Notes: generated by a model not told the origin, from the letters alone. Positions 8,314-27,301 are shown, counted from the first letter of the stretch. The stretch is 64,000 bases of DNA from an uncultured Planctomycetia bacterium (GCA_964455085.1 CAYVYJ010000005.1:21239-85238); one strand, 5' to 3'. Translations and numbers: made by a program.

Positions 8314-8382
8314 GCTATTAACCCCTTTATATTAACTATAGCAAATTTTTCTCATTTTGCAAGCATTGTTGATAGAAAATAA

Positions 8383-9006
8383 TTAACTAAAGTGAGGGAG
8401 TGAAATACCCAGACTATCTAAGTCTCTGAGCAATTGATTAAAACCAGTAAATTGCAGACATTGTAAGTCAAAGTCCTTGGCTTTCATAATCAAATCCTGG
8501 CGATCATCAATATAAATTATATTTTGAAAGTCAGTAGCCGCGATATCGCTTAAGGCCTGATAAATAGCTTTTTCCGGTTTAACTGATTTGATTTTATAAG
8601 AGAGAATCAACTCTTTAAAGTGGCTAAAGACTTGCGGATAGGTTTGGTAAAGATAGTCAAAATGAAGCTGATTTATATTCGAGATAACATACAAAGGATA
8701 AGTGTGCTTAAGGGCGCTTACTAAGGTAATTACCTCATCCTTGGGTGAAAATATTTTACACCAGACATCAGCAAAGTACTCATAGCTTAAACAAGCGCCA
8801 AAAGTGTCATTAAAGTAAGTATAAAAGGTTTGGGAGCTGACTAATCCCTTCTCAAAGCTTAAACCGAAATCATTTTCAAAAAGCTCTTTAACTACCCGCT
8901 CAACCGGTACCTTGATTTTATCTTTAATCTTGGCTAAAGCAATATTGTAGTCAAAGTCAAAAAGAACCCGGCCTAAGTCAAAAGCAAGTACTTGTCTTTT
9001 CTCCAT
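8383..9006 (-). CDS. HAD-superfamily hydrolase
   Basis: The N-terminal motif AFDLGRVLFDFD matches the DxD nucleophile motif I. Confidence 0.65.
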   Translation of the reverse strand: MEKRQVLAFDLGRVLFDFDYNIALAKIKDKIKVPVERVVKELFENDFGLSFEKGLVSSQTFYTYFNDTFGACLSYEYFADVWCKIFSPKDEVITLVSALKHTYPLYVISNINQLHFDYLYQTYPQVFSHFKELILSYKIKSVKPEKAIYQALSDIAATDFQNIIYIDDRQDLIMKAKDFDLQCLQFTGFNQLLRDLDSLGISLPHFS

Positions 9007-9066
9007 AAACTAATTGCCTTTACCCCGTTAGAAGTATCAAGCTCGAAGGAAGAAAGAACAAAACTT

Positions 9067-9996
9067 CTAACGGGGTAAAAAAGATTGCGCGCACCTTTTG
9101 AGACTCTCCCTGGCCCGGAAAGGCGCCTTAAACCCTAAAGATCTTAGTCGCTCTAAACTGTAAACCCGATCCTTGGAGAAAAAATTGATTTTTCTACCCA
9201 GGAAAGGAAGATTTAATAAAAGCGGTTTTAACCAAGCAGGAATATTAAGAGGGGGCTTTACCCCTAGGGTTTCGGCAATGGTGTCGAAGAGATCACCGAC
9301 TGTTAAAACTTCATCGTCGCCAAGGAAGAAAGAACCTTCTAAGGCTTGGTCTTTATCTGCTAAAAAAATCATGGCCTCAACAATATTGCCCAGATAACCT
9401 AAATGTAACTTACTCTGGCCTCGATTGAGTAAAGGAAAAAGACGGTACTTAGTCAGAAAAAACAAGAATGGCATCAGGTGCGGTTCAGCTTCCCCATAGA
9501 CCATCGGCGGACGGACAATTATTGTCTTAAGCCCTGCCTCCCGATATTTAAGCACAATTTTTTCTGCTTCAATCTTAGACTGACCATAGGCATTTGTGGC
9601 CTTAAAGGGTAAACTTTCTGTTAGAGGAACTTGACTATTACCGCTTACTACAGCTACTGAGCTGGTATAGATGAATCTCTCAACTCCTAAACTCAGGGCT
9701 AATTCGCAGATATTTTGACTACCTAAAATATTTACCTTATAGAGGAGTTCCGGATTCTTATTTTCTACACAGGCAGCCAGATGATATAAATATTTGAACT
9801 TATAGTTGCGAAATTTGCTTAATGAGGCTTTTTGGGTAATATCAGCATAAATAAGCTTAACCCCGAAAGGCTCAAGAAGTTTGGCCTTGTGAGGATTTCT
9901 TACCAAACAAAAAATATTCCCCTGCCCCTTCTTAGACAACTCCTCTACCAGATATCTGCCGATAAAACCTGTGGCCCCGGTTATTAATATATTCAT
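9067..9996 (-). CDS. NAD-dependent epimerase/dehydratase (extended SDR)
   Basis: The Rossmann motif ILITGATGFIGRYL is present, and the length is about 309 aa. Confidence 0.75.
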   Translation of the reverse strand: MNILITGATGFIGRYLVEELSKKGQGNIFCLVRNPHKAKLLEPFGVKLIYADITQKASLSKFRNYKFKYLYHLAACVENKNPELLYKVNILGSQNICELALSLGVERFIYTSSVAVVSGNSQVPLTESLPFKATNAYGQSKIEAEKIVLKYREAGLKTIIVRPPMVYGEAEPHLMPFLFFLTKYRLFPLLNRGQSKLHLGYLGNIVEAMIFLADKDQALEGSFFLGDDEVLTVGDLFDTIAETLGVKPPLNIPAWLKPLLLNLPFLGRKINFFSKDRVYSLERLRSLGFKAPFRARESLKRCAQSFLPR

Positions 9997-10013
9997 CCCT
10001 TAACTACATTTAT

Positions 10014-10079
10014 CTGTTTAGGATTCGCCTAAACAGAGGAAGCCGGAAAGGAGCTGCTGTTTAGGCGAATCCTAAACAG
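10014..10079. repeat. Large inverted-repeat element. Its two 23-nt arms (ctgtttaggattcgcctaaacag and its reverse complement) are separated by a 20-nt spacer, and each arm is itself palindromic (tttagg-attcg-cctaaa).
   Basis: The architecture (arm, roughly 20-nt spacer beginning agg, arm) is the same as the element at 43089..43153. Confidence 0.6.
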
Positions 10080-10085
10080 GTCTTT

Positions 10086-11051
10086 CTATTGGTCGATCTT
10101 CTTAACTCTCGCAGCTAAGATAATCTCTATTATTCTTAAATCTTCTTCACTAATCTTCCAATCAGCACTACCTAAGTTATCATATAACTGAGCAAGCTTT
10201 CTGGTTCCCACAATAGCCGAGGTTATGCCTGGCTGGTTATAATTCCAATTCAATACTAGCTGAGCCAGAGTCTTTTTGTACTTATCAGCTATTGCTTTTA
10301 ATTTTAAGAGAGTACTCTTATTTATTGAAAACCGCGGCTCGGATAAATCTTCTCCCTTCATCTTACGATTGAGATCTTGAGGAATTTTTACTTTGCCAAA
10401 GAAAAACTTTCCGGTTAATAACCCGCTATATAAAGGAGCGTAAGCAATGATTCCCAGTGAATTTTCTAAACAATATGGTGCTATATCTTCCTCAATACTC
10501 CGCTCAAACATGCTATACTCTGGCTGTAGACAATGCAGCGGTGAGTACTTTTTAAATTCCTGGATTTGGGCTAAGGAATAGTTGCTTACCCCGATTGCTT
10601 TGATCAGGCCGTCCTGGTAAAATTTATACATTTGCTCAGCAGTTTCACCGATGGGAGTATTGGAATCAGGCCAATGTACCTGATAAAGATCAAAGTAATC
10701 AGTTTGAAGGCGCTTTCGGGAGATATCTAACTCTTCCCTCATCCGCTTGGAAGACAAATCATGTAAAATCTCCCTTCCACGCCAGCCCAGCCCCAACTTG
10801 GTGGCTAAAATTATATTCTTGCGCAGTTTACTCTTGGCAATAAATGAGCCGATAACTTCCTCAGAGCGTCCCCGGCCATATACCGGAGCAGTATCAATAA
10901 AATTTACTCCTCTCCTTACTGCTTCCTCTAATACCGCTAAAGAATCTTTATCTTCTTGATGCCCCCACCACCTATCTCCGCCAAATGCCCAAGTACCCAG
11001 GCAAATTACTGATACCTTAAGCGAAGAATTTCCTAACTGCCGATATTCCAT
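10086..11051 (-). CDS. Aldo/keto reductase
   Basis: The N-terminus YRQLGNSSLKVSVICLGTWAFGG and the length of 321 aa are typical. Confidence 0.85.
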   Translation of the reverse strand: MEYRQLGNSSLKVSVICLGTWAFGGDRWWGHQEDKDSLAVLEEAVRRGVNFIDTAPVYGRGRSEEVIGSFIAKSKLRKNIILATKLGLGWRGREILHDLSSKRMREELDISRKRLQTDYFDLYQVHWPDSNTPIGETAEQMYKFYQDGLIKAIGVSNYSLAQIQEFKKYSPLHCLQPEYSMFERSIEEDIAPYCLENSLGIIAYAPLYSGLLTGKFFFGKVKIPQDLNRKMKGEDLSEPRFSINKSTLLKLKAIADKYKKTLAQLVLNWNYNQPGITSAIVGTRKLAQLYDNLGSADWKISEEDLRIIEIILAARVKKIDQ

Positions 11052-11065
11052 AGGTTTCCCTCTTA

Positions 11066-12565
11066 TTAGAAATAAAGGTCACGGGCGCCCCGCTTAATCC
11101 GCTGATAATAACTTTTAAGCTTTGGGTAAATTTTTGGCATTGAAAACTTTATTGCCTCTAACTCATCTTTGATTACCTTCTCACCTTGCTTTTGAGTTTC
11201 CTCAGTAGCAAAATCATCCAGCCACTCTCTGAAGGTAAGTACCGCATTTAACTTACAAAGCTTTCCCTCTTCCCCGGTCTTTAAGAGTTCCATAATACAC
11301 TTGCCGGTTCTTCCGCAGCGGTAACCAGCCGTACAAAAAGAAGTAATATAGCCTAAAGAAGCTAACTCTCTTATTAGTTCGTCTAAACTGCGGGTATCAC
11401 CTAAGAAAAATTGCTGCCGCTGACCTTCCTGCTCAGCATAACAATCACTGTAAGCACCGATTCCAATCCGGGTCGAAGCATCAGTTTGAGTACAGCCTAA
11501 GGAAATAGTCTCTCTTCGTATTTGGGCACTTTCCCGGGCAGTAAGAATCATCCCGGCATGGGGTATAGCTAATCTGATAACTGTAATTAACTTTTTAAAA
11601 TCCTGATCACTAACTTTATAGCCTGACTCCTGGGTAAAGGGTGTATTAGCCGCTGGTTCAAGTCGCGGGAAAGAAATTGTATGGGGACCTACACCAAAAC
11701 GGTTCTCTAATTCCCGGGAATGCAGGAGAAGGCTTAAGACTTCGAACCGCCAATCGTAAAGACCGAAAAGAACACCAATACCGACATCATCGATTCCAGC
11801 CTCAAAGGCCCGATGCATACAATATAATCGCCACTGATAATCTGCCTTAAGCGTCCCTTGGGGATGAACTTCTTGGTAGGTCTGGGGATGATAAGTCTCC
11901 TGAAACACCTGATAAGTACCTATACCAGCCTGCTTAAGCTGCTTAAGATCTTCAGTTGATAAAGGCGCAGCATTAACATTAACCCGACGAATCTGGCCAT
12001 AGCCTTTTTTGGTCTTGGCCTTTACTCCATAAATTGTTTCAATAGTTGAAGCCATATAATCTATATCAGTCTGAGGATGTTCTCCGTAAACTACGATTAG
12101 ACGCTTATGTCCGATTTGACCAGCTAAAACCTCTGTCTCTCTTCTTACCTCATCCTGACTAAGGACTTTTCTCTGAACCTGTAAATTATCTCTTCTGAAC
12201 CCGCAGTAAAAACAATTATTTAGGCAAAGATTGCCGAGGTATAAAGGGGCAAAGGTAACAATTCGATTATCGTAGACCTTTTTTTTAACTTCTCCGGCAA
12301 CTTCGGCCATCTGGTCCCAAAGCTCTTTATCTTCAACTCTCAGCAAGGTTGCTGTCTGCTCCAAGGTCAGAGTCTGGATAGCTAAGGACTTAGCTAAGAT
12401 ATCCTTAACCTCTCCCTCTGAGACCTTTGATTTAGAGACTAAAGCCCGATTAATTGATTCCTGATCGATAAAGTGTCGACCCTGATTCAGGTATTTCTCT
12501 ATCTGAGCTGGTTTTATCTGCCTTTCGGCCCAGGAATCTAAACTAGTGGTCTTAATCTGCATCAA
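11066..12565 (-). CDS. hydG: [FeFe]-hydrogenase-type radical-SAM maturase HydG (tyrosine lyase family)
   Basis: 499 aa, longer than ThiH. The radical-SAM motif is CLNNCFYCGF. The C-terminal auxiliary-cluster region SFCTAGYRCGRTGKCIMELLKTGEEGKLCKLNAVLTFREWLDDFA resembles the HydG signature (CTAxYRxGRTG..FME...C.xNA). Confidence 0.8.
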   Translation of the reverse strand: MMQIKTTSLDSWAERQIKPAQIEKYLNQGRHFIDQESINRALVSKSKVSEGEVKDILAKSLAIQTLTLEQTATLLRVEDKELWDQMAEVAGEVKKKVYDNRIVTFAPLYLGNLCLNNCFYCGFRRDNLQVQRKVLSQDEVRRETEVLAGQIGHKRLIVVYGEHPQTDIDYMASTIETIYGVKAKTKKGYGQIRRVNVNAAPLSTEDLKQLKQAGIGTYQVFQETYHPQTYQEVHPQGTLKADYQWRLYCMHRAFEAGIDDVGIGVLFGLYDWRFEVLSLLLHSRELENRFGVGPHTISFPRLEPAANTPFTQESGYKVSDQDFKKLITVIRLAIPHAGMILTARESAQIRRETISLGCTQTDASTRIGIGAYSDCYAEQEGQRQQFFLGDTRSLDELIRELASLGYITSFCTAGYRCGRTGKCIMELLKTGEEGKLCKLNAVLTFREWLDDFATEETQKQGEKVIKDELEAIKFSMPKIYPKLKSYYQRIKRGARDLYF

Positions 12566-13221
12566 ATCACCCGATTTTTCTCCGCTCTTCGCTTAGTAAG
12601 AAAAATTAAGCTCTCCAGTTCCGAAGCCATATCCACATCCGATACCGATACAGTTTGAGGAACTTTCAGCACAATCGGTGCAAAATTTAAGATACCTTTT
12701 ATTCCTGATGAGACCAGTTCATCGGCAATCTTCTGAGCAACTTCCGGCGGTGTAGAAATTATGGCAATTTTAATATTTTCTTTTCTGATAATGCGCTGCA
12801 TCTGTTTTACATGGCTAATCTTTACCCCTTTCCTGGCTCTTCTAACTTTATCTTTGTCAATATCAAAGGCCAGAGTTATTTTAAGATTGAATTTGGAAAA
12901 CCCCTCAAAGCCTAAAAGAGCGCTTCCTAATCTTCCTATGCCTACTATAGCAATTCTCCGTTCTTGATCTAGGCCTAAGATAGTTTCAATCTCCTGGGCT
13001 AACCTTTCGACATTATAACCGACACCCCGCTTACCAAAACCACCAAAGAAAGAAAGATCCTTCCTGAACTGCGCCGGACTAACATTAAGAAATTTGGTCA
13101 GTTTAGCGGAAGATATAACATCAGTATTCTGAGCTTTTAACCGCTTTAAATTCCTCAGATAAATACTGAGACGCCTAATCGCCTCTAAGGAAAAATTATT
13201 TTTATTGTTTCGTTTCTTCAT
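12562..13221 (-). CDS. rex: Redox-sensing transcriptional repressor Rex
   Basis: It has an N-terminal wHTH and a C-terminal Rossmann motif IVGIGRLGSALL, and is 219 aa. Its stop overlaps the hydG start as ATGA, and its start overlaps the hydE end. Confidence 0.85.
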   Translation of the reverse strand: MKKRNNKNNFSLEAIRRLSIYLRNLKRLKAQNTDVISSAKLTKFLNVSPAQFRKDLSFFGGFGKRGVGYNVERLAQEIETILGLDQERRIAIVGIGRLGSALLGFEGFSKFNLKITLAFDIDKDKVRRARKGVKISHVKQMQRIIRKENIKIAIISTPPEVAQKIADELVSSGIKGILNFAPIVLKVPQTVSVSDVDMASELESLIFLTKRRAEKNRVI

Positions 13222-14533
13222 CGAGTAATTCCCTACTAACTCCTAAATCTGTAGGCGCCCGACCTAAAGATTTAAGCAAAGATATTGCTTCTTTAATCTG
13301 GATATTTATCAACTCCTTACTATGAGCCTTATTAGGATAAATTTCATAATGCTGGCGGTATTTAATCGGAGTAAGGTTAAGCATCAGGGAATTAGCGCCA
13401 GCTAACAACCCTTCTCTGCGGGCTGTAGGCATCACAGTCTCTAAGGCTGTAGTTATTAAAATCTTAGCTCTTTCTGGATCAATAAACCTTGCTAAAGCCA
13501 AGGTTTTTAAGACTAACTCTGGTGTAGGAGCCTTAAAGCTTCCCAAGGGGGATCTGGGATGGGGCAGGAAAGGTCCCAAGGAATACATCTCAGCTCCTAA
13601 GACTTTAGTCAAATAGATATCATTTATAATATCTTCGGCACTTTGGCCAGGTAGGCCAATAAGAGCCCCAGTCATAATCAAGTAGCCAATTTCAGCGGCT
13701 CGCCTAATATGGGCTAATCTGGTATCTAGTTTCTGTCCGGGATGAAGATCAGCATAAATTTTTGGATTAGAGGTTTCGAAACGCATAAGCATAGCTCTGG
13801 CTCCGGCCTGATAGAGAGTGTCTAGAGCCTCTAATCCTACTTCACCAAAACTGATACAGATTAACACCGCAACTCTTTCTTTAATTCTTCTGATAATTGA
13901 AGCTAATTCTTCAGCAGCCAAATAAGGATCCTCACCGCTCTGTAAGACCAAAGCCTGAAATCCATACTTCTCGACTGCCTCAGTAGCAGTATCAATTATT
14001 TCCTCAGGTCCCATCCGGTAACGCAGAAGTCCTTTATTATCGGCTGATATACCACAATAAGCGCATTGACGCTGGCAATGGTTAGAAATCTCGATTATCC
14101 CGTGAATACAGCAGGAATTTTTATGGTACTTCTGACGCAGGAAATTAGCTGATTTATAAATCAGCTTAAGCGATTGTTGATTATCTAAATTAATTAAGTA
14201 TAATAACTCCTCTTTTTTTAAAGAACGGTTTTCTAAAGCCTTGTCCAGGATAAGCCGTAGTTTCTTATCATCAACTCCTTTATCAAGATCCAGGCGCGAT
14301 AGCCGCAGATCAACATCCTGAAGTTGAAAGAAAAGTTCTTGCCAGGCTTCCAAGATTTCCTTTGCTTCATCTTCCTTAACCTTTTTTATCACAAATCCCC
14401 CCTGGGCACAGATATAATCCCCGCGATTAATATTATAAAACTCATTAATCGCTTTTTTTTCTTGGCCAAAGTAGTCAACAATGACTTGTTTACCTTTAAT
14501 ATCCTTTACCCTTCCGGGAATCGCATAACACAT
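13202..14533 (-). CDS. hydE: Fusion protein: N-terminal HypC/HupF-like domain of about 80 aa plus the radical-SAM maturase HydE
   Basis: The N-terminus MCYAIPGRVKDIKGKQVIVDYFG...GDYICAQGGFVIKKVKEDEAKEIL carries the HypC signature (MCxAIP, essential Cys2, VDFGG, GDYVLVHVGFA). Residues 140-443 align closely with HydE, through IIEISNHCQRQCAYCGISADNKGLLRYRM, VLQSGEDPY, RFETSNP and GLPGQ...GPFLPHP. Confidence 0.8.
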   Translation of the reverse strand: MCYAIPGRVKDIKGKQVIVDYFGQEKKAINEFYNINRGDYICAQGGFVIKKVKEDEAKEILEAWQELFFQLQDVDLRLSRLDLDKGVDDKKLRLILDKALENRSLKKEELLYLINLDNQQSLKLIYKSANFLRQKYHKNSCCIHGIIEISNHCQRQCAYCGISADNKGLLRYRMGPEEIIDTATEAVEKYGFQALVLQSGEDPYLAAEELASIIRRIKERVAVLICISFGEVGLEALDTLYQAGARAMLMRFETSNPKIYADLHPGQKLDTRLAHIRRAAEIGYLIMTGALIGLPGQSAEDIINDIYLTKVLGAEMYSLGPFLPHPRSPLGSFKAPTPELVLKTLALARFIDPERAKILITTALETVMPTARREGLLAGANSLMLNLTPIKYRQHYEIYPNKAHSKELINIQIKEAISLLKSLGRAPTDLGVSRELLDEETKQ

Positions 14534-14545
14534 CTTAGTTCTCCT

Positions 14546-14788
14546 CTATTCACAGTCAAATGCGACAACTTCAATTCTTAAACTAGGGAAGAAAATAATC
14601 TCCAGCTTTGCGTCTTTAAGAATAGTATTCTTAGCCAGTATGGCAAAGGTCTGGCGAAATGAATCTTCCTTAACGCCGGTAAGCTCTCCAATCTTAAGCT
14701 GAACCCGGGTTACGGTTTTTGCTCCTTCTTCTTCAGCATGTTTAGCTATCCCCTTGATGATCGGCACAATCAGATGAGTCTCATGCAT
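14546..14788 (-). CDS. hypA: HypA-like hydrogenase nickel-insertion protein, truncated to the N-terminal Ni-binding domain with no zinc finger
   Basis: It has the MHE N-terminus and a KIGELTGVKEDS core. The ORF ends ...AFDCE with a TAG stop exactly where the first CxxC of the HypA zinc site would begin. The hypC::hydE RBS and start follow 12 nt later. Confidence 0.65.
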   Translation of the reverse strand: MHETHLIVPIIKGIAKHAEEEGAKTVTRVQLKIGELTGVKEDSFRQTFAILAKNTILKDAKLEIIFFPSLRIEVVAFDCE

Positions 14789-15287
14789 TGGATGACTCCC
14801 TAATCAATCTTGCCACTTCCCCTAGGGTCTGCTTCAGGCTAGGTGAAAACTCAGACCCTAACTCGATTGTTTTCGGCTGAACCCCAAGCATATAAATACC
14901 AGCTTCAGTCTCCTTAGTTAAACATTCCATAAACATTGCCGGAGATATGTCATGGGTAGTAAATCCGCACTTTATGATATCATCTTTTTCTAAAATCTCA
15001 TACTCCCCGGGATCTCTTCCTAAATGCACGGCATCAATAATTAAAACTGTATCGGGTTTCTCTTTAATAATCTTACCGATATAATTCTCCGGTGCCGACC
15101 CAGCATCTAAACAAACTGCTTTAGTCTTCCCCTTTATCGCCTCAATAAGAACTGGTCCAAAACCATCGTCGCCGCGGATAATATTACCGATGCCGACAAT
15201 AACAACCTTTCCTTTGAGTATACTTTTCAATTTGTCTTTCATTGTGATTAAGTATTCAGAGTAGTTTCCCGACGGCATCTGGCGCAA
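14781..15287 (-). CDS. hycI: Hydrogenase maturation endopeptidase (HycI/HybD family)
   Basis: The motif VVIVGIGNIIRGDDGFGPVLIEAI is present and the length is 168 aa. Confidence 0.8.
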   Translation of the reverse strand: MRQMPSGNYSEYLITMKDKLKSILKGKVVIVGIGNIIRGDDGFGPVLIEAIKGKTKAVCLDAGSAPENYIGKIIKEKPDTVLIIDAVHLGRDPGEYEILEKDDIIKCGFTTHDISPAMFMECLTKETEAGIYMLGVQPKTIELGSEFSPSLKQTLGEVARLIRESSNA

Positions 15288-15856
15288 AGAATCTTTACCC
15301 GGTCAGAACGTCCCTGATCCTTTAGGACTGATATGATGTTCTCATCGACTATGCCCAGATTTTTTAGGCCGGCGAGATAAAGTGTGGGGCTGGAAAAACT
15401 GAGCTCACCAAGTCTCTGGTTAATCCAATTCAGGTGGTCAGAGCAAGCAATCGTCTCGCCGCAAATCTCACAAAGCTGCAGTTTCTTCTCGATCTGCTCT
15501 GAAGCTTCACTACGGTTAAAAAAGGAAAGTTCCCAATCACCGGATAACTTAATGCCCTGATTATCGGCAATACAAGCAGCTTGGCACTGGCCGCAGAATA
15601 TACAGGTATCAGTATAGTGAATCATAGCTCTGCGGGGGTTATCTTTATCATTAACGATATCAATATTACCAATTGCTTCTACCGGACAAACTTCTTTACA
15701 GGCCAGACAACCAACACATTTATCCTGATCAAATTTAGGTTGACCCCGAAAATTAGGATGAGCTTTGTGGGGCTCAATGGGAAACTTGGAAGTATAGGGA
15801 CCTTTTATAAGAGCTTTTATTGCTTCAATTAACTCTCTAATCTTGGGTAGTTTCAT
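15248..15856 (-). CDS. NuoI/HycF/MbhN-like 2x[4Fe-4S] subunit with an extra C-terminal Cys-rich tail
   Basis: Two cluster motifs are present, CVGCLACKEVCP and CIFCGQCQAAC. An additional CEICGETIACSDH...CARCRRE lies at the C-terminus. Confidence 0.75.
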   Translation of the reverse strand: MKLPKIRELIEAIKALIKGPYTSKFPIEPHKAHPNFRGQPKFDQDKCVGCLACKEVCPVEAIGNIDIVNDKDNPRRAMIHYTDTCIFCGQCQAACIADNQGIKLSGDWELSFFNRSEASEQIEKKLQLCEICGETIACSDHLNWINQRLGELSFSSPTLYLAGLKNLGIVDENIISVLKDQGRSDRVKILCARCRRETTLNT

Positions 15857-15889
15857 TCCACTTCTCGTTTATTTATAACTTACAACAGT

Positions 15890-16252
15890 TTAGGCCTCTC
15901 CCTCTTTATCTTCAAGATACTTATCAACAACACTCCTCTCCCAAAGTTTTACTCCCGACCGATGTGCGCCCCTGGCAATGGCATGGGCTGCAACCGGAGA
16001 AGTTAGTAGGAGAAAAATCATGCATAAGAGGGCTTTCATCCCGGCAGCTGTGGGACCAGCCACAAGAAAGGCCCCAAACAAAATACTACAGGTACCTAGA
16101 GTAACACACTTGGTAGCTGCCTGCAGACGGTTATAGACATCGGGAAGACGCACTAGGCCTAAGGCACCGATAAGATCAAAAACTAATCCTAAACTAATAA
16201 ATATTAAACCAAGAGAACTACTCATCAAAACTCCTTCCTTAAATGAGACCAC
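15890..16252 (-). CDS. mrpG: Mrp antiporter subunit G-like (MbhC-like)
   Basis: The MnhG-like sequence LIGALGLVRLPDVYNRLQAATK is present. The likely true start is MSSSLG at 16225, which follows AAGGAAGGAG. Confidence 0.7.
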   Translation of the reverse strand: MVSFKEGVLMSSSLGLIFISLGLVFDLIGALGLVRLPDVYNRLQAATKCVTLGTCSILFGAFLVAGPTAAGMKALLCMIFLLLTSPVAAHAIARGAHRSGVKLWERSVVDKYLEDKEGEA

Positions 16253-16340
16253 AATTTATGGAACGAAGTGAACATAAATTGTACGGTCGAATTTATCCTG
16301 AGCGAAGCGAAGGATCTTCTATTCATCAAAACTCCTTCCT
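16221..16340. repeat. 20-bp direct repeats (tcatcaaaactccttcctt) at 16221..16240 and 16321..16340 flank an 80-bp insert that contains a perfect 10-bp-stem hairpin at 16251..16282
   Basis: The repeated sequence encodes both the mrpF C-terminus plus stop and the mrpG RBS plus start. The insert forms the acaatttatg-N12-cataaattgt hairpin. Confidence 0.55.
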
Positions 16341-16705
16341 TCTAAATACTTGGAAAATGCTAAGGTGCTTATAAAACTCTGCAAGGCCCAGGCTATTCCA
16401 ATATCAATATACCAAGATCTCTTGGTAGAAATAGTCAACACTGCACATATTCCCACAACCATAATACCTAAAATATCAATAGCTACTATCCTATCAGCAC
16501 CAGTAGGCCCTTTACAAATACGATAAAGACAGAGAAGGCAAGCCAAAATAAGTATGTAGAGAGCGCGACCTAGGAAACCCAAATAAGGAAGGTCGGGACA
16601 AAAAAGGAAAGGAAGTGGCCGGATTATAATCATACCAACAATCCCGGTTAAAACAATTACTCCAATGAACCATGGCTTCTTTATCATCTTATCCCCTTTA
16701 ATCAA
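16319..16705 (-). CDS. mrpF: Mrp antiporter subunit F-like (MbhB-like)
   Basis: The MnhF-like core CLYRICKGPTGADRIVAIDILG is present. Confidence 0.7.
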   Translation of the reverse strand: MIKGDKMIKKPWFIGVIVLTGIVGMIIIRPLPFLFCPDLPYLGFLGRALYILILACLLCLYRICKGPTGADRIVAIDILGIMVVGICAVLTISTKRSWYIDIGIAWALQSFISTLAFSKYLEGRSFDE

Positions 16706-17195
16706 AAATTTTCTCTAATATTTTTTCAAAACGCTGGACAATGATTTCGGTCGCTTCTTGAACATCCTTTGCCTTCACATTAATCCAGTGTATATACAAA
16801 ATACCTTTATCGCGATCAATATCCACACTCATTGTACCGGGAGTTAAAGTTATTGAGTTAGCTAAGAATGTTAAAGCGGTATCGCTCTTTAAAGCTGTCT
16901 TTACTTTAACAATTCCCGGATTTATCGGTAGCTGTGGATGCAAGACTCGATAGGCAACGTCAATATTTGCTTTGATAACTTCCCACAAAAATACTGGCAA
17001 ATAATAGGCGAAGAAATATAGGTAACGTAAAGGATGTTTTAGCAGATGAGGCCGAGTGATAAATAAATCTCCGGTTAAAATAGTTACCAGAACAGCAACA
17101 AAAATTCCGGCTATAAGATGTTGAGTGTCCGGCACCCAACTTAGCAGGGACCAGATTACAAATGCTATTAAAAGTAAAACTACTCTGCTCTTCAT
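16698..17195 (-). CDS. mrpE: Mrp antiporter subunit E-like (MbhA-like)
   Basis: 165 aa with MnhE-like topology and size. It overlaps its neighbours, consistent with translational coupling. Confidence 0.6.
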   Translation of the reverse strand: MKSRVVLLLIAFVIWSLLSWVPDTQHLIAGIFVAVLVTILTGDLFITRPHLLKHPLRYLYFFAYYLPVFLWEVIKANIDVAYRVLHPQLPINPGIVKVKTALKSDTALTFLANSITLTPGTMSVDIDRDKGILYIHWINVKAKDVQEATEIIVQRFEKILEKIFD

Positions 17196-18700
17196 TGATT
17201 TATCTGGGTTAAAACTAAACTACTATATTTACTGCTTTCTAAAAGAACACCTGAGGCCGGCTGCAGAAAAACTTCTTTTACCCCGGAGGCAAACAAAACT
17301 CCTCCTAGCAAACAAATAAATGCTAATATTAGCATCGAGAGCTTCATCAACGCCGGTACTTCTTTCACTTGGCGCCACCTCTGGCTTAAGTTTCCAAAAA
17401 AAGCATATTTCATAACCTTAACATACATAGCTAAAGTTAATACACTAACTAAAACCAGCCAAAAAGCATACCCATAGTGACCAGCTTCTACGGTTGCCAG
17501 TATAATAAATAGCTTGCTCCAGAAACCACTAAAAGGGGGAACACCGGCGACAGACATAGAAGCAGTTAAATTAGTTAGGCAAGTTAAAGGCATCTTTTTT
17601 CCTAAACCGCCCATCTTTTGTAAATCCCGGGTTCCGGTAGCATATTCTACCGCTCCCGAATTTAGGAATAGAAGCGATTTAAATACTGAGTGATTAAAAA
17701 GATGAAAAAGTCCAGCTAATATACCTAAGGGTGTACCTAAGCCAATAGCCAGAACAATATAACCTACCTGGCTTATCGAGGAATAAGCCAAGAGTCGCTT
17801 AAAATCCCATTGTCCTAAAGCCAGTAATCCTCCGACCACCATAGATATTACCCCCAAGAACATTATTATTGAAGATAGTTCTCGGGTCATCCCTAATAGA
17901 TTATAGAATATTCTAATTAAAGCATAGATTCCCAGCGATTTTATCAATACTCCTGAAAGCATGGCTGATATTGGGGCCGGAGCTGAAGGATGAGCATCAG
18001 GCAACCAAGCATGAAAAGGAACCAGGGCAGCTTTAAGACCAAAACCCATTAAAAATAAAACGCTCACCAGAAGAACCAGGTTAGTAGCCGGTTCTTTAGC
18101 TAAAATAGCCCCCATATCAGCAATATTTAAAGTGGAAGTTAAGCCGTACAAAAGGGCAATGCCTAAAAGGATAAACAAAGACCCTACTGTACCCATAATC
18201 GCATATTTAAAAGCAGCTTCTAACTCATGACGTTCAGTTCCAAAAGCAACCAAAGCATAACTTGCCACCGAAGCAATTTCCAAAAATACAAAGAGATTAA
18301 ATATGTCGCCGGTAATAATCACTCCGTTCATTCCAGCCAACATTAAAAAAAAGAGTGAATAGAACTTCCACTTGGAAGTATACTTTTCCATATAATTTAT
18401 TGAATAGATTACGATGATGAATGCCACTAAATTTACAGTCACTAACATAAATGCAGTTAAACCATCCAAAACCAAGCCGATACCTACCGGTGGTTTCCAA
18501 TTTCCCACGCTATAGACAAGAATCCCCTGATTATTACGTAAGAAGACACTTAAAAAAGATAAAATACAGAGAACAAAAGCAGCTAAAACTCCTAATAGAT
18601 CCGGTGCTGGTTTTATTTTCTTTCCCAGAAGAGAAGTTAAAAAGGCTGCTCCCAAAGGTATAACTACAAATAATGGTATTATGTTAGCTGACGGATTCAT
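17192..18700 (-). CDS. Mrp subunit D / NuoM/N-like proton-pumping antiporter subunit
   Basis: 502 aa and polytopic. The NuoN/MrpD-family GGLAL...HAWLPDAH region is present. Confidence 0.8.
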   Translation of the reverse strand: MNPSANIIPLFVVIPLGAAFLTSLLGKKIKPAPDLLGVLAAFVLCILSFLSVFLRNNQGILVYSVGNWKPPVGIGLVLDGLTAFMLVTVNLVAFIIVIYSINYMEKYTSKWKFYSLFFLMLAGMNGVIITGDIFNLFVFLEIASVASYALVAFGTERHELEAAFKYAIMGTVGSLFILLGIALLYGLTSTLNIADMGAILAKEPATNLVLLVSVLFLMGFGLKAALVPFHAWLPDAHPSAPAPISAMLSGVLIKSLGIYALIRIFYNLLGMTRELSSIIMFLGVISMVVGGLLALGQWDFKRLLAYSSISQVGYIVLAIGLGTPLGILAGLFHLFNHSVFKSLLFLNSGAVEYATGTRDLQKMGGLGKKMPLTCLTNLTASMSVAGVPPFSGFWSKLFIILATVEAGHYGYAFWLVLVSVLTLAMYVKVMKYAFFGNLSQRWRQVKEVPALMKLSMLILAFICLLGGVLFASGVKEVFLQPASGVLLESSKYSSLVLTQINQ

Positions 18701-19041
18701 CCTCTTAACTCCCGAATTTTAGTAATATCAAAAGTACCATATTTCTCATATATCCTCATGGCAATAGCAACTAGTAAGGCAGTAGTAGCCAGACCAATAA
18801 CAATAGCCGTGAGCACCAAAGCATGGGGCAGGGGATCAACCATATTAGAGGCAGAAATATCTCCTTGGGGAGAAAATATCGGCGCTCTACCTTTGATACG
18901 ATAAGCTACCAAGATAAAAAACAAATTAGCGGCATACTCAGATATGATCACCCCGACAATAATCTTAATTATATTACGCTTCCTTAAAATACAATAAAGA
19001 CCGACACAAAAAAGCCCTAAACAAAGTAAATATACAATCAT
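18697..19041 (-). CDS. Mrp subunit C / NuoK-like (MbhG-like)
   Basis: 114 aa with three TM helices; similar to MnhC. Confidence 0.7.
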   Translation of the reverse strand: MIVYLLCLGLFCVGLYCILRKRNIIKIIVGVIISEYAANLFFILVAYRIKGRAPIFSPQGDISASNMVDPLPHALVLTAIVIGLATTALLVAIAMRIYEKYGTFDITKIRELRG

Positions 19042-19541
19042 TCTTTCTTCTCCGGTTCTAGCTTTAACAAAACTAAAGCAACGAATATTGCAAAAAGCCC
19101 GGCGCCGACCTTAAGGCATATCGCTATATTACAAAGAGGGATTATGCCGGCCGAGAATAAACTAAAAACTTTGCCCTTAGCTATGAAATTTAAGAAAAAA
19201 TAACCCCCAGTAAATCCAAGCAGAGCTATGGTCAAAAATAATAAGGCACCGGTGCTTTCAAAAAACGAGACTGCTTTCTTTGGTAAACGCTTAAAAACTA
19301 CCTCTTTACCGTAAGCAAGCATAAGATGAATAAAAGAAAGAGCAATAATAACCCCTCCAGCAAACCCTCCTCCCGGTGATAGATGACCATGGGTAACTAT
19401 ATAAATACCATAAAGAAGTATTAACCCCACCGTAAGACGAGTAATTGTTTTAACAATAACTGACATGCCTTTTTCGTGTTCTCTACTCATCTTCTTCCTC
19501 TGGCGCCTCCCCCGGTCTCCTCCTGCCGATTCTGCGCACAA
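19038..19541 (-). CDS. MnhB-domain membrane subunit (MbhE/F-like)
   Basis: The MnhB motif HLSPGGGFAGG is present. The true start is probably the internal MSVIVK near 19466; the N-terminal 25 aa of the track ORF overlap the upstream gene. Confidence 0.6.
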   Translation of the reverse strand: MCAESAGGDRGRRQRKKMSREHEKGMSVIVKTITRLTVGLILLYGIYIVTHGHLSPGGGFAGGVIIALSFIHLMLAYGKEVVFKRLPKKAVSFFESTGALLFLTIALLGFTGGYFFLNFIAKGKVFSLFSAGIIPLCNIAICLKVGAGLFAIFVALVLLKLEPEKKE

Positions 19542-20031
19542 TAGCTAAAACACCAATTACAGCAGTGAACAATATCGTAGCCTCCCCCAGGGTATCATAA
19601 GCTCTAAAATCCAATATCACTGAAGAAACAACATTAGCTGCCCCGGTTTGAGATAAGCCTTGGTTAAGATAAGCTCTTGCAACCTTCATAACGGGATATC
19701 CGAATTCCGGCAATTCCCTTAAAGCTTTGACCGATATAAACAAAAATACAGCAATAAAAGCTGTAACGATAAAAGTGTTCAGTAACCATCTCCCGGTTGT
19801 TGAAAAAGGAATATCTTTTCTCAAAGTAGCTCTAATCAAAATAATCAAACACAATATCTCAACAACCAGCTGGGTAATGGCTACATCCGGTGCTTTAAGT
19901 ATTAAAAAGACTATGGAAAGCCCTAAACCTACAGCTCCCACAGCTATTACTGAGGAAAGAAGATCCTTTAACTCAGTGGCAACAATTGCCCCAACAATCA
20001 TAAATATTAGTAAAATATATAACTCAAACAT
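19483..20031 (-). CDS. MrpB-like subunit (DUF4040 plus MnhB domain; MbhD/E-like)
   Basis: The MnhB domain VVSSVILDFRAYDTLGEATILFTAV is present. Confidence 0.65.
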   Translation of the reverse strand: MFELYILLIFMIVGAIVATELKDLLSSVIAVGAVGLGLSIVFLILKAPDVAITQLVVEILCLIILIRATLRKDIPFSTTGRWLLNTFIVTAFIAVFLFISVKALRELPEFGYPVMKVARAYLNQGLSQTGAANVVSSVILDFRAYDTLGEATILFTAVIGVLAIVRRIGRRRPGEAPEEEDE

Positions 20032-20034
20032 TGT

Positions 20035-21690
20035 TTAGCCCCGTAAAATGTAAAAAATCATTATCATAGCTAAAAGACACCAAGCCAAATATGTAGGAAG
20101 TACGCCATTGTGAACGTAACGTAATATCCTGATAAAAACAAAAGTTACCCTTCTGCTTAAATCGTAAAGATCGAAAACTTTTTTCTCAGCTAATTTATAA
20201 ATGGCCTTTAAAATCCCTATTTCCTGGATTGTATTGTAAAACTCAGTTCCTGAAACCCGCATATCTAGGTGTCTTCTTAAATCCTCACCGCCTACAAAGC
20301 CTGCTGTTTCCCTTATTTTGGCAGCTTTGCCTAAAAGATAGATTACCATCCCAATTGCAATTCCCACAATTATTAATAACGTGGCTAAGCTTACGTTCCA
20401 GATACCAAGAAATTCTACCCCGCCCCCTAAACTGGGGAAAATAAACATCTTAAGCGGAATCTGATAGGCAAAAACTCCAAAAATAACACAGAGTGAGGCT
20501 AAGAAGACTTGAGGAAACCACATATTTGGTCCAACATCCTTTAGGACTTTACCAGCGATCCCTGACTCTGAAGACGGCTGGCCTAAAAATACAGCATGGA
20601 TTAATTTCATAAAACTAGCTAAAGTAAGGGCGCTACCAAACATAGCCGCGGTTAGCCAAATTACCCATAGGTATCCTCCGCTCTTGGCGGTTTCAATTAT
20701 GCCCTGATAAATCATCCACTTAGAAGCAAATCCATTAAAAGGTGGTACTCCTGATATAGCTAAGGACGCTAACAAGAAGGCTCCAAAAGTAATCGGCATA
20801 ACTTTAGCCAAACCACCTAATTTTTCTAAATCACTTGTTCCAGCTTTCTTTTCTACCGCCCCACCGCCCAAAAAGAGACAAGATTTATAAATAGTATTAT
20901 TGAGCATATGAAACAGGCCCCCAGCAATACCCAAGAGACTGCCGGTACCAATACCCAAAACCATATACCCCACCTGACTTACGGCATGATAACCTAAGAG
21001 TCGTTTTAGGTCATGTTGAATTAAGGCCATCATAACTGCCGCCACAATAGTAATACTACCTACCAGCATTAAAAAAGTATTCATACCTTTATCCATCTGA
21101 AAAATATTTAAAGACAATCTGACTAAGAAGTAAATACCCAGAAGCTTATCTAGAGAAGCTGGCAGAAAGGCAGCCACCGGAGTCGGCGCATCTTCGGCGG
21201 TATCAGGCACCCAGGTATGAAAAGGCATAGCGCCAGCTTTAGCAAAAGCACCGGCAGCCAGACAAAGATAAGCCCAGACAGCTATCTTACTATCTAAAGC
21301 AATGTTTAACGTATCCATCTGCGCTACTCCTGATAGCTTCCAAACCAAGGCTAAACCCAAAAGCATAAAAGCGTCAGTGCCACCGATTATTATAAAAGCC
21401 TTTTTTGCCGTAGCCGGAGTCTTATCGCTCTTACCAAAACTGATTAAAAGGTATAAGAGTAAACCTAAGAAACCCCAGAAGACCATAAACAAAATAAGAT
21501 TGTTAGAAAAGACAGCACCTAAGGAAACAATAAAGGTAAGCACTATATATAGGTAATAACGAAACAGTCCTTTGCTTCCACGCATAAAGCCTAATGAGTA
21601 GCTAACCGTAAGGATAGTGAATATCCCGATAAATATACCTACAAAACCGGAAAGTTTATCGATCTTAAATAACTCGCCTGCTAAGTTCAT
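20035..21690 (-). CDS. MrpA/D / NuoL-like antiporter subunit (MbhH-like)
   Basis: 551 aa and polytopic. The NuoL/MrpD-family core (HTWVPDTAEDAPTPV) is present. Confidence 0.8.
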   Translation of the reverse strand: MNLAGELFKIDKLSGFVGIFIGIFTILTVSYSLGFMRGSKGLFRYYLYIVLTFIVSLGAVFSNNLILFMVFWGFLGLLLYLLISFGKSDKTPATAKKAFIIIGGTDAFMLLGLALVWKLSGVAQMDTLNIALDSKIAVWAYLCLAAGAFAKAGAMPFHTWVPDTAEDAPTPVAAFLPASLDKLLGIYFLVRLSLNIFQMDKGMNTFLMLVGSITIVAAVMMALIQHDLKRLLGYHAVSQVGYMVLGIGTGSLLGIAGGLFHMLNNTIYKSCLFLGGGAVEKKAGTSDLEKLGGLAKVMPITFGAFLLASLAISGVPPFNGFASKWMIYQGIIETAKSGGYLWVIWLTAAMFGSALTLASFMKLIHAVFLGQPSSESGIAGKVLKDVGPNMWFPQVFLASLCVIFGVFAYQIPLKMFIFPSLGGGVEFLGIWNVSLATLLIIVGIAIGMVIYLLGKAAKIRETAGFVGGEDLRRHLDMRVSGTEFYNTIQEIGILKAIYKLAEKKVFDLYDLSRRVTFVFIRILRYVHNGVLPTYLAWCLLAMIMIFYILRG

Positions 21691-22871
21691 TTAATACCCA
21701 ATTTACTTTTTATCTTTGCGGTCTTCTCCTGAGAGAGCCGGATTAAGTCTTCTCCGCCATAGAGCTTCTTACCCCTGGTATCACGCACAGCCATCCTTTC
21801 GGTACAACAATAGCAAGGATCAATAGCGGCAAAAATTATCGTAGCATCAGCTATAGTCTGGCCAACAACAGTTGATTTATAAGTTGGTAGATTCATAAAG
21901 GTTGGTGCCCGTATCTTATGGCGAGCCGGCCGGTTAGTGCCGTCACTGACCAGATAATGAAAACACTCTCCTCGGGGAGCCTCAATCTGGCCGATTCCTT
22001 CTCCGGGAGGAATACTTTTAATATTCGCGTCAATATCACCTCCAGGCAGATTTAGGAGACAGTGTTTTATTATCTTTACTGACTCAAAAGTCTCTAAAAT
22101 CCTTACTACAGCTTTATCAAAAACATCACCGTTTGAGGTCACGATCATCTTCCAATCAACTTGATCATAAGCTCCGTAAGGGCAATCTTTTCTTAAGTCT
22201 TTGGCTACTCCTGAGGCCCGGGAAGTTGGCCCGAGAGCTGAATAATCTATGGCTTCTTCTTTAGTGAGAACACCGACCCTCTTGGTTCGGGCATGCAGGA
22301 CCGGATCGTCAATAACTGCCTTTTTAAGCATTGTCAATGTCGGTATAATTGAATCGATTTTCTTAATAACCCCGGGGATATCACTGGATTTTATATCTCT
22401 TCTTACCCCTCCTGGTTTAAACATAGCGTAATTATTTCTATTACCCGCTAAAACCTCCATTGCATCCAAGATCTCTTCTCTTAACTTCCAGGCCCACATA
22501 TAAACAGTATTGTAGCCTAAGAAGTGACCGGCTAAACCCAACCACAAAAGATGTGAGTGTATTCTCTCGCCCTCAGCAATTATGGTCCGAATATACTTAG
22601 CCCGCGGTGGTACTTCTATCGGTATCACATCCTCAACGGCCCGGGTATAAGCAAAAGGGTGACTGGTAGAGCAAATACCGCAGATTCTTTCGACAACAAA
22701 AGTAGATTGGTCAAAGGTCTTCATCTCAGAGAGTTTTTCAATACCCCGGTGATTATAACCAACCTCGACATCAACCCCTACGATTTTCTCACCTTCTACA
22801 GTAAGAGTGAAAAACTCCGGTTCTTCCTGCAGGGGATGATAAGGCCCTATCGGTACTATTGTTCTAGCCAT
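21687..22871 (-). CDS. [NiFe] hydrogenase large subunit, group 4 (NuoD-like; MbhL/EchE/HycE-type)
   Basis: Both metal-binding motifs are present: N-terminal RICGICSTSH (RxCGxCxxxH) and C-terminal DPCYCCTER (DPCxxCxxR, the group-4 variant). The length is 394 aa. Confidence 0.85.
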   Translation of the reverse strand: MARTIVPIGPYHPLQEEPEFFTLTVEGEKIVGVDVEVGYNHRGIEKLSEMKTFDQSTFVVERICGICSTSHPFAYTRAVEDVIPIEVPPRAKYIRTIIAEGERIHSHLLWLGLAGHFLGYNTVYMWAWKLREEILDAMEVLAGNRNNYAMFKPGGVRRDIKSSDIPGVIKKIDSIIPTLTMLKKAVIDDPVLHARTKRVGVLTKEEAIDYSALGPTSRASGVAKDLRKDCPYGAYDQVDWKMIVTSNGDVFDKAVVRILETFESVKIIKHCLLNLPGGDIDANIKSIPPGEGIGQIEAPRGECFHYLVSDGTNRPARHKIRAPTFMNLPTYKSTVVGQTIADATIIFAAIDPCYCCTERMAVRDTRGKKLYGGEDLIRLSQEKTAKIKSKLGIK

Positions 22872-23784: not shown

Positions 23785-23785
23785 T

Positions 23786-25272: not shown

Positions 25273-25273
25273 T

Positions 25274-27207: not shown

Positions 27208-27301
27208 TCGTAATAAATAATCGTACCATACAAGAATAAGCTTGTCAAACAATTTTTATTAATTAATCAAGCTGACTACTAAAAATATACAGATTGGGGA
27301 T

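Follow-up and report, generated by a model that had tools for sequence, protein, structure and literature searches.

A HypC-HydE' fusion and HydG encoded with a [NiFe] hydrogenase in Omnitrophota: a candidate hybrid maturation module

[quoted passage not shown] For the H-cluster of [FeFe] hydrogenases, maturation is performed by HydE, HydF and HydG. The literature was searched for a role of HydG or HydE in [NiFe] maturation and nothing was found except one passing mention of a protein fusion: an 'unusual HydE-HypC fusion' is counted among the 'full maturation machinery' of Ca. Centrionella anaeramoebae, with no mention of HydG, of missing HypDEF, of distribution or of mechanism (bioRxiv 10.64898/2026.04.11.717937).

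The DNA analysed here (the window, 64 kb over its full length) belongs to a Candidatus Omnitrophota MAG. On its minus strand, at 11066-15287, five ORFs were found exactly where an earlier note on this DNA had placed them. They encode HycI, a HypA without the zinc domain, a fusion of HypC with a HydE-like radical SAM domain (HydE'), Rex and HydG. This block is packed at the 3' end of an Mbh/Mrp-type [NiFe] hydrogenase operon (15248-27131, same strand). According to family matches, the electron-input genes at 24706-27131 encode an AsrA-like Fer4_22 protein, an AsrB-like FAD/NAD(P) protein and a HycB-like 4Fe-4S protein. The hydrogenase core follows at 21687-24709 with NuoH-like membrane, NuoB-like small and NuoC-like subunits and the [NiFe] large subunit (21687-22871), and the Mrp/Mbh-type membrane module at 15248-21690 comprises two MrpD-like proteins, MbhD/E, MnhB, a NuoK-like protein, MnhE, MnhF, MnhG and a NuoI/HycF-like Fe-S subunit (15248-15856). 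The large subunit carries the motifs RICGICSTSH and DPCYCCTER and a C-terminal extension of 33 aa, which identifies a true [NiFe] hydrogenase; both CxxC motifs, the NuoB-like small subunit and the Mrp-type membrane subunits place it in the membrane-bound group 4 of the Mbh/Mrp type. An aldo/keto reductase gene (10086-11051, minus strand) begins 14 nt downstream of hydG and may be cotranscribed with it. Its membership of the system is doubtful; the AKR-SDR-HAD synteny is preserved in L001, L003, L004, L013, L026 and L027.

The genes of the block are tightly joined. The hycI and hypA genes overlap by 8 nt (ATGCATGA), and the gap between hypA and hypC::hydE' is 12 nt and holds GAGGAG. Between hydE' and rex the overlap is 20 nt, as the earlier note had it; the ATGA it gave for rex/hydG needs a minor correction, the junction being TGATG with a 1-nt overlap when the ATG at 12562 is used, or TTGA when the TTG start of hydG is taken. 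An internal promoter and terminator dividing the block, which would have spoken against a functional link of its two halves, were considered and rejected: 18 terminator-like matches (18.3 expected) and 48 promoter-like matches (43 expected) in the block correspond to chance level, and the hypA-hypC gap, because it measures only 12 nt, leaves no room for either element.

The first two genes encode factors known from [NiFe] maturation. The HycI-type endopeptidase for the C-terminus of the large subunit (14781-15242, minus strand; ORF to 15287 with an upstream start) belongs to PF01750, scores 108.9 bits with TIGR00072 (cutoff 47) and is 38% identical to E. coli HycI; translation likely begins at an ATG (15242 or 15278) rather than at the TTG (15287). 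HypA (14546-14788, minus strand, 80 aa) consists of the N-terminal nickel domain only and matches positions 1-66 of the 112 positions of PF01155. Its N-terminal MHE motif is present (MHETH) and is conserved in all 14 short HypAs, and the zinc-binding domain with its two CxxC pairs is cleanly absent, giving 58 bits with TIGR00100 (cutoff 88). The 80-aa form also occurs in 13 other loci, plus L057 and L058.

The fusion gene spans 13202-14533. The HypC domain with its linker helix (residues 1-79; 14297-14533, minus strand) is recognised over residues 1-64 by PF01455 (49.4 bits, cutoff 28.5) and by TIGR00074 (48.9 bits, cutoff 48), and matches the HypC structures 2z1c and 3vyr. In the model of the fusion, residues 1-52 form the HypC beta-barrel and residues 54-79 a helix. 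The N-terminus reads MCYAIPG with an invariant Cys2, the essential iron-ligand Cys of HypC. At the position of E. coli HypC His51, aligned by eye, the Omnitrophota branch has an invariant Gln44, and no His was found there in the CPR branch either; since this conserved His is missing, the fused domain may not bind iron in the way HypC does.

The remainder of the fusion (13202-14296, minus strand) is the HydE' domain, with HydE fold and the radical SAM motif CX3CX2C in the form CQRQCAYC. Its TIGR03956 score of 245 bits is just below the equivalog cutoff of 254.6, and its AF2 model (pLDDT 88.7, pTM 0.88) superposes on 3CIW with an rmsd of 1.5 A over 336 columns. In T. maritima HydE numbering, Q107, R159, E161, R180, M224, T268, T269 and Y306 are retained, and the substitutions are R54H, T134C and R155A (H144, C226 and A247 in the window). 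The role given to R54, T134 and R155 comes from one computational study, according to which these residues and T269 would contact CN ligands during Fe(I) dimerisation in HydE (PMC11826987). The residues at R54/T134/R155/V289 are RTRV in 51/60 non-fusion loci of the metagenome set. All fused proteins (41/41, and 20/20 in an independent set) have H / F,C,I / G,A / S,A,T at these sites, with two odd sequences at position 289 among the 41 (one Gly, one gap). Every fused HydE' differs from canonical HydE at the R54, T134 and R155 sites. Unfused proteins with the HydE' signature also follow [NiFe] genes (L059, L078). Two other ways of delimiting the group were tried and given up. The extra Cys in RTGxC occurs in 99/120 homologues, but L057 has a His at this position and is nevertheless linked to Mbh, HycI, HypA and the fusion. 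A UPGMA clustering on identities placed 28/41 fusions in one pure cluster and the divergent CPR-type fusions apart, near a few unfused proteins; because the fusions were left split and monophyly was not recovered, the case is built on the residue signature and not on a tree.

HydG (11066-12562, or to 12565 with the TTG start, minus strand) is a tyrosine-lyase-type radical SAM enzyme with 454 bits for TIGR03955 (cutoff 312.15), and its alignment with the T. italicus HydG structure 4WCX gives 456 bits and 47% identity. The N-terminal CX3CX2C motif reads CLNNCFYC and is invariant in all 23 HydGs of the loci. At the C-terminus, CTAGYRC...C is found instead of CTACYR...C (CX2CX22C), i.e. the second Cys is replaced by Gly and a new Cys stands three residues further on. 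A His is present at the position which we take to be that of the dangler-iron ligand. The motif CTAGYRC was rejected as a [NiFe]-specific signature; the same CX5C occurs in the HydGs of Ca. Kaelpia, Thermodesulfovibrio hydrogeniphilus and P0291, which belong to TM1266/HydF/HydE/HydA clusters. As it is present in HydGs of true HydF/HydE/HydA clusters, it is a natural variant and does not disqualify the protein. With these three HydGs the window protein shares 65-72% identity. By sequence, it is indistinguishable from HydGs serving [FeFe] hydrogenases and is not [NiFe]-specialised.

The association with [NiFe] genes was assessed by a comparison of 119 loci, with HydE' in 58 and canonical HydE in 59. 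A [NiFe] marker accompanies HydE' in 39/58 loci and canonical HydE in 0/59. HydG was found in 38/58 and HydF in 0/58 of the HydE' loci, whereas HydF is present in 23/59 and any [FeFe] marker in 28/59 of the canonical ones. The separation is significant (Fisher p = 5.5e-17). The fusion is conserved in Omnitrophota, CPR/Patescibacteria and other MAGs. In 27 species genomes, it comes after genes for a HycI-type protease and a [NiFe] hydrogenase. At least four [NiFe] architectures stand beside it: Mbh/Mrp, 3b-like AsrAB-SSU-LSU, a group-1-like Tat-dependent enzyme with full HypA and HypB (L007), and Ech-like. In three lineages, HypC, HydE' and HydG form a single protein (L006, 921 aa; P0123, 906 aa; P0129, 881 aa). 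In three loci (L008, L010, L023), HydE' belongs to the [NiFe] cluster, and a canonical HydE, encoded separately with TM1266-HydG, belongs to an [FeFe] cluster, which makes HydE' a distinct paralogue; co-location alone is ambiguous there because the [FeFe] hydrogenase is about 5 kb away. The fusion occurs without a hydrogenase or without HydG within 10 kb in L025, L064, L072, L058 and L080. Taken together, the conserved fusion, the varied [NiFe] neighbours, the triple fusions and the statistical split from canonical HydE strongly support the functional link of HydE/HydG-type genes to the [NiFe] hydrogenase for which the earlier note had argued, mostly on grounds that were not available to that note.

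Several partners of the known pathways were searched for and not found. With E. coli queries, tblastn detected no HypD, HypE or HypF, either in the window (64 kb) or in the 862 kb surrounding HydE' genes, and the window contains no HypB, no HydF and no [FeFe] hydrogenase (HydA). HypD/E/F, HydA and HydF could be encoded elsewhere in these genomes. For Ace Lake, each Omnitrophota MAG is reported to have one hydrogenase type only (PMC8542988), so MAGs with a group 4g or 3b enzyme are without an [FeFe] enzyme; no hyp or hyd gene tables were found in the supplements of that paper.

The operon appears to be controlled by Rex. Its best sigma-70-like promoter (27220-27248, minus strand; TTGACA, 17 nt, TG-TACGAT; 10/12 matches with an extended -10 TG) is predicted within the 170-nt gap that precedes the operon's first gene. 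The predicted Rex operator TTGTGATTTTATTCACAA (minus strand; 27190-27207) begins 12 nt downstream of this -10 element and has one mismatch to TTGTGAA-N4-TTCACAA. It is the sole site with ≤ 2 mismatches in 64 kb (0.31 expected); N6 spacing gave chance matches only, N4 being the correct spacing. Comparable boxes precede the 3b-type operon and rex in L023 and L009-L011. The near-perfect box next to the best -10 element supports the Rex-controlled promoter that had been suggested for the [NiFe] operon. Rex itself (12562-13221, minus strand), the NADH/NAD+-sensing repressor, scores 255 bits with NF003995 (cutoff 126) and has the winged-helix N-domain and the Rossmann domain, with a cognate operator at the operon promoter. 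Its location between the two radical SAM genes is real, as noted earlier, but does not serve as support for the link: rex stands between hydE' and hydG only in L001, L003, L004, L012, L013, L026 and L027 and is missing there in many relatives. Since this is a lineage-specific insertion and rex also adjoins [FeFe] operons in sister Omnitrophota, its position is in itself no evidence for a [NiFe] connection.

We interpret the block as a hybrid module devoted to the maturation of the [NiFe] hydrogenase whose genes lie upstream, in which an Fe-CO/CN unit would pass from HydG to HydE', then to HypC and to the large subunit, and assign this reading a probability of about 0.6. The chemical steps that we infer are as follows. 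A rising NADH/NAD+ ratio would release Rex from the operator at the operon promoter, and structural genes, maturases and rex would be transcribed together. As it does for [FeFe] enzymes, HydG would cleave tyrosine, its C-terminal cluster serving as the site where an Fe-carbonyl-cyanide unit is assembled. HydE' would accept this unit and process it to a mononuclear species; the product may stay mononuclear because the catalytic site is kept but the cavity residues modelled on the cyanides of two Fe units during dimerisation are lost. Cys2 of the tethered HypC domain could then take over the Fe(CO)(CN)x fragment and insert it into the apo large subunit. HypC would thereby be the carrier, as HydF is in the [FeFe] pathway, and HydG and HydE' would be the builders in place of HypD, HypE and HypF of the canonical [NiFe] pathway. 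Nickel would be provided by the zinc-less HypA, and HycI would finally cut off the 33-residue C-terminal extension. The known HydG synthon is Fe(CO)2(CN)(Cys) and the product required for [NiFe] enzymes is Fe(CO)(CN)2; because the two differ, an exchange of CO for CN must be assumed.

The same linkage counts fit equally well with an accessory role, in which HypD, HypE and HypF encoded elsewhere make the cyanides, and HydG and HypC::HydE' give only the carbonyl or an alternative iron-loading route, which would make the module the anaerobic equivalent of HypX. CO production by HydG is proven, the anaerobic CO source is the main unsolved step of [NiFe] maturation (PMC12134894), and HypD/E/F are often encoded at a distance from the structural genes, hence absence from flanks of 10 kb on each side is no proof. 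We nevertheless consider this explanation unlikely. Near these hydrogenases, HypC-like sequence occurs only as part of the HydE' fusion, although hypC usually travels with hypD, and the clusters encode HypA, HypB and the protease, but HypD/E/F in 0/58 loci. The maturation set listed for the closed symbiont genome is also without HypD/E/F, and a separate cyanide route would be redundant, as HydG yields cyanide besides CO.

It is very improbable that HydG and HydE' are ordinary maturases of an [FeFe] hydrogenase encoded elsewhere, located beside the [NiFe] operon only through a shared Rex-controlled regulon of hydrogen metabolism. The HypC domain has no role in [FeFe] maturation, the residue signature of HydE' is fixed, and the distributions of HydF and of [NiFe] markers given above are opposite to what is seen with canonical HydE. 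Such a role would agree with the equivalog-level score of HydG and its high identity to HydGs of true [FeFe] clusters, with the occurrence of Rex beside [FeFe] operons in Omnitrophota, and with the nearby [FeFe] cluster in L008, L010 and L023; yet genomes with an [FeFe] cluster retain a separate canonical HydE, and no [FeFe] hydrogenase accompanies the group 4g or 3b enzymes of Omnitrophota MAGs (PMC8542988). A different target, be it another metal site built or repaired, e.g. in the AsrA/AsrB-like subunits, or a small-molecule sulfur product of HydE' unrelated to the hydrogenase active site, deserves even less credence. It is true that AsrA/AsrB-like genes are found with the window operon as well as at the 3b-type loci, that the biochemical function of HydE was uncertain for a long time, and that some loci carry the fusion without a nearby hydrogenase. 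However, L007, L024 and L059 tie the module to [NiFe] enzymes with no AsrA/AsrB homologue in the locus DNA examined, HypC, HypA and HycI are all specific factors of the large subunit, and the partnership with HydG, including the triple fusions, indicates Fe-CO/CN chemistry.

If the hybrid module does serve the [NiFe] hydrogenase, nature has recombined two maturation systems that were regarded as unrelated. It offers a testable answer to the question of CO origin: in these lineages, the ligands may derive from tyrosine via radical SAM chemistry. A further-reaching claim, for which we would not offer even odds, is that of a complete Fe(CN)2CO pathway in which HypD/E/F are dispensable, with CO and CN- from tyrosine via HydG, a HydE-derived enzyme tailoring the iron unit and a fused HypC delivering it, and that this pathway is widespread in small-genome anaerobes (Omnitrophota, CPR/Patescibacteria, a Legionellales endosymbiont). 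The three replaced HydE residues hint at a natural 'monomer versus dimer' switch and could inform studies of the HydE mechanism, and a compact module of two genes or one could ease heterologous production of [NiFe] hydrogenases.

Compared with the HydE/HydF/HydG system of H-cluster maturation, the module shares a full-scoring HydG with the radical SAM motif and a HydE' with the HydE fold (1.5 A) and kept residues, encoded adjacently or fused as expected for consecutive steps. It differs in that HydE' carries HypC as a fusion partner and has R54, T134 and R155 replaced, and in that neither HydF nor HydA is found at the locus or elsewhere in the window; moreover, the module is linked to a [NiFe] hydrogenase, an enzyme that requires a mononuclear Fe(CN)2CO rather than a dithiomethylamine-bridged [2Fe] subcluster. 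With the HypABCDEF and endopeptidase system it shares HycI, the nickel domain of HypA and a HypC-type domain bearing the essential N-terminal Cys, whose genes directly follow those of the structural subunits. The large subunit likewise shows the usual pairs of CxxC motifs and an extension that can be cleaved off. Unlike in that system, HypD/E/F were not found in the window or related loci nor HypB in the window, HypC is not free-standing and has Gln for His51, HypA is without its zinc domain, and two radical SAM enzymes stand in place of hypDEF. HypX, which produces CO aerobically from formyl-THF, is similar in being an extra, non-universal maturase whose purpose is to supply the [NiFe] site with a diatomic ligand, but its protein family, chemistry and oxygen regime are unrelated, and it acts together with HypCDEF. 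The fusion of Ca. Centrionella anaeramoebae (bioRxiv 10.64898/2026.04.11.717937) is of the same kind and is likewise located inside a [NiFe] operon, together with the protease, HypA and HypB.

The five open reading frames of the maturase block were confirmed on the minus strand at 11066-15287 by ORF check and profile searches, and every gene of the region has this orientation. They encode HycI (14781-15242/15287), an 80-residue HypA consisting of the nickel-binding N-domain alone (14546-14788), a 443-residue fusion of HypC (residues 1-64) to a HydE-like radical SAM domain (13202-14533), Rex (12562-13221) and HydG (11066-12562; TIGR03955, 454 bits against a cutoff of 312). The HydE-like part reached 245 bits with TIGR03956, slightly under the cutoff of 254.6. 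The tight, overlapping packing described in the earlier note holds, including the 20 nt shared by hydE and rex, except that rex and hydG overlap by 1 nt (TGATG) and not literally by ATGA. The overlap of hycI and hypA is 8 nt, and hypC::hydE is preceded by a 12-nt gap with a Shine-Dalgarno sequence.

Upstream of the block, the genes at 15248-27131 specify a true [NiFe] hydrogenase of the Mbh/Mrp type, with both cysteine motifs and a cleavable extension of 33 residues in its large subunit. Ahead of the hydrogenase genes lie those for three electron-input proteins; the AsrA-like, AsrB-like (FAD/NAD(P)) and HycB-like genes (24706-27131, minus strand) open the operon. The AsrA/AsrB-like pair is shared with 3b-type enzymes, pointing to a group 4 complex coupled to NAD(P)H. 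Downstream of hydG, genes for an aldo/keto reductase, an SDR epimerase-like protein and a HAD hydrolase follow at very short gaps (8383-11051, minus strand), a synteny kept in six related genomes (loci L001, L003, L004, L013, L026 and L027). Elsewhere in the window, Pfam scans detected no HydA, HydF or Hyp genes.

The sole good promoter is located at 27248-27220. A predicted Rex operator with one mismatch, the window's single site of this kind, lies 12 nt past it (27190-27207). The block was also checked for an internal split, and promoter- and terminator-like matches inside it occurred at chance frequency. Directly upstream of the promoter, a hydrophobic ORF of 103 aa (27302-27613, minus strand) has no Pfam match; its start, MCYAVP, resembles the MCYAIPG of the HypC domain, which may be coincidence. 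In Omnitrophota, Rex genes and Rex boxes are found beside [FeFe] and [NiFe] operons alike (L056, 3325-4095; L023, 989-1006 and 7036-7053; L009-L011). Several Omnitrophota rex genes have a predicted upstream box of their own, suggesting autoregulation.

Close cluster representatives of the fusion number more than 120 and derive almost entirely from Candidatus Omnitrophota MAGs; both PF01455 and PF04055 were found in 118 of 120. A scan of species-representative genomes gave 27 loci, in which a HycI-type protease and a [NiFe] hydrogenase almost always precede the fusion and HydG mostly adjoins it or lies near. The hydrogenase type differs: Mbh/Mrp as in the window, a 3b-like AsrA/AsrB/small/large-subunit enzyme, an Ech-like enzyme (L024) or a Tat-dependent group-1-like enzyme (L007), the cluster of which also contains full-length HypA and HypB. 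In L007, the 660-aa small subunit (12855-14837) carries C-terminal bacterial Ig-like (Big_6) repeats, and TatC is encoded in the same cluster. A divergent second branch of the fusion, starting MCLTIPGK, occurs in CPR/Patescibacteria (Parcubacteria, Falkowbacteria, Peregrinibacteria, Portnoybacteria) and some Deltaproteobacteria MAGs. Genes for a ferritin-like protein and a PLP enzyme of the D-cysteine desulfhydrase family adjoin the fusion in L080 (11316-13022), and a NikA-like nickel-binding protein gene does so on a 0.8-Mb contig (L064, 8196-9797).

In three different lineages, HypC, the HydE variant and HydG form a single ORF of 881-921 aa: 921 residues on the closed 1.5-Mb chromosome CP070797.1 (L006, 10001-12766), and 906 and 881 residues in other [NiFe] clusters (L046, 10001-12721; L049, 10001-12646).

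The AlphaFold model of the window fusion is confident (pLDDT 88.7, pTM 0.88): a long linker helix joins the HypC beta-barrel to a second barrel, which superposes on Thermotoga maritima HydE at 1.5 Å. This variant, termed HydE', keeps nearly all conserved residues of canonical HydE, including Q107, R159, E161, R180, M224, T268, T269 and Y306 (T. maritima numbering). Four positions differ systematically: R54 is replaced by H, T134 by F, C or I, R155 by G or A, and V289 by S, A or T. Every fused sequence carried the replacements at positions 54, 134 and 155, 41/41 in one set and 20/20 in an independent metagenome set; at position 289, two of the 41 were odd (one Gly, one gap). Of the 60 metagenome loci without the fusion, 51 had the canonical RTRV pattern. 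[quoted passage not shown] Three of these four contacts are thus lost in HydE' and the primary site is retained. Such a loss would be expected if the HydE' product must stay mononuclear, as the [NiFe] site requires, an argument built on this one computational paper.

The metagenome scan provided an unplanned control set, with 20 fusion loci and 60 loci lacking the HypC domain. Pooling gave 119 loci, which were classed by residue signature into 58 with HydE', 59 with canonical HydE and 2 unclassifiable. HydG was encoded in 38/58 HydE' and 26/59 canonical loci, and an [FeFe] marker (HydA, HydF or TM1266-like) in 3/58 and 28/59, respectively. HydE' proteins without a fusion are likewise encoded behind [NiFe] genes: the gene immediately before the one in L059 ends in the large-subunit C-terminus (DPCMSCAAH), and L078 contains large subunit, small subunit and HydG. 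A [NiFe] marker was present in 39/58 HydE' loci and 0/59 canonical loci (Fisher's exact test, p = 5.5e-17), and HydF in 0/58 and 23/59. Moreover, in L008, L010 and L023, the HydE' loci in which an [FeFe] marker was present, the fusion is at the [NiFe] cluster, and a trimeric [FeFe] hydrogenase about 5-8 kb away has its own TM1266-like gene, HydG and separate canonical HydE. Ordinary [FeFe] maturases that are merely co-located with a [NiFe] operon are therefore improbable, and some other target is still less probable. The functional link to the [NiFe] hydrogenase proposed in the earlier note is supported by the neighbour counts, the triple fusions and the HydE' signature.

The window HydG shows 47% identity to T. 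italicus HydG, for which a crystal structure exists, and retains the radical SAM motif, as well as a His at what we take to be the dangler-iron ligand position. Its C-terminal motif is CX5C, replacing CX2C. CX5C was rejected as a [NiFe] specialisation, as it also occurs in HydGs of 65-72% identity from ordinary TM1266/HydF/HydE/HydA clusters of Ca. Kaelpia aquatica, Thermodesulfovibrio hydrogeniphilus and another Omnitrophota MAG; an additional Cys was not diagnostic either. Bona fide [FeFe] maturation clusters with a CX5C HydG are L054 (T. hydrogeniphilus, 8335-13997), L052 and L056; in T. hydrogeniphilus, an aspartase/fumarase-type lyase gene lies between the TM1266-like gene and hydG. Because HydGs of [FeFe] clusters share CX5C and the partners of the fusion fall into at least two HydG clades, HydG appears to be generic, with the adaptor function in HypC::HydE'.

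Using E. coli queries, tblastn found no HypD, HypE or HypF in the 64-kb window or in any HydE'-bearing locus (862 kb in total). The hyp-type genes at these loci are those for the protease, HypA, the fused HypC and, in 3/58, HypB (among the 27 genome loci, L007). HypA has cleanly lost its zinc domain in 14 loci, and the essential Cys2 is retained in the HypC domain.

A hybrid pathway is the best-supported general model (probability about 0.6). The product of HydG would pass to the HydE' domain, then to Cys2 of the HypC domain and on to the apo large subunit; HypA-N would supply nickel, HycI would cleave the large subunit, and Rex would control the whole operon. The strong version, with no HypD/E/F at all, falls somewhat short of even odds. 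The hybrid pathway faces difficulties in the CO2CN to CO(CN)2 stoichiometry, in a HypC domain with Gln at the position of the conserved E. coli His51, and in loci where the fusion stands alone. In closed genome CP070684.1 (L058, 8335-11500), the genes for short HypA, the fusion and HydG stand by themselves behind a 38-residue hycI remnant. The 8 kb upstream are free of hydrogenase genes; the structural genes may have moved elsewhere or been lost. An accessory module delivering CO only, with HypDEF encoded elsewhere, is unlikely, if clearly less so than co-location.

Two reviews from 2025 attribute cofactor synthesis in all [NiFe] hydrogenases to six Hyp proteins, describe the anaerobic CO source for the [NiFe] cofactor as unknown and do not mention HydG (PMC12130793, PMC12134894). 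Ace Lake Omnitrophota MAGs (76-93% complete) have one hydrogenase type each, and therefore some have group 4g or 3b without an [FeFe] hydrogenase (PMC8542988). A preprint on Ca. Centrionella anaeramoebae, which mentions in passing an unusual 'HydE-HypC fusion' within a [NiFe] hydrogenase operon that also encodes a protease, HypA and HypB, contains nothing on HypD/E/F or HydG (bioRxiv 10.64898/2026.04.11.717937), and the literature searched proposes no mechanism for the fusion. The hybrid system bears directly on the long-standing question of the anaerobic CO source. As a hybrid of the known maturation machineries for hydrogenases, it is essentially undescribed; HypC would take the place of HydF as carrier, and HydG and HydE' that of HypD/E/F as builders.
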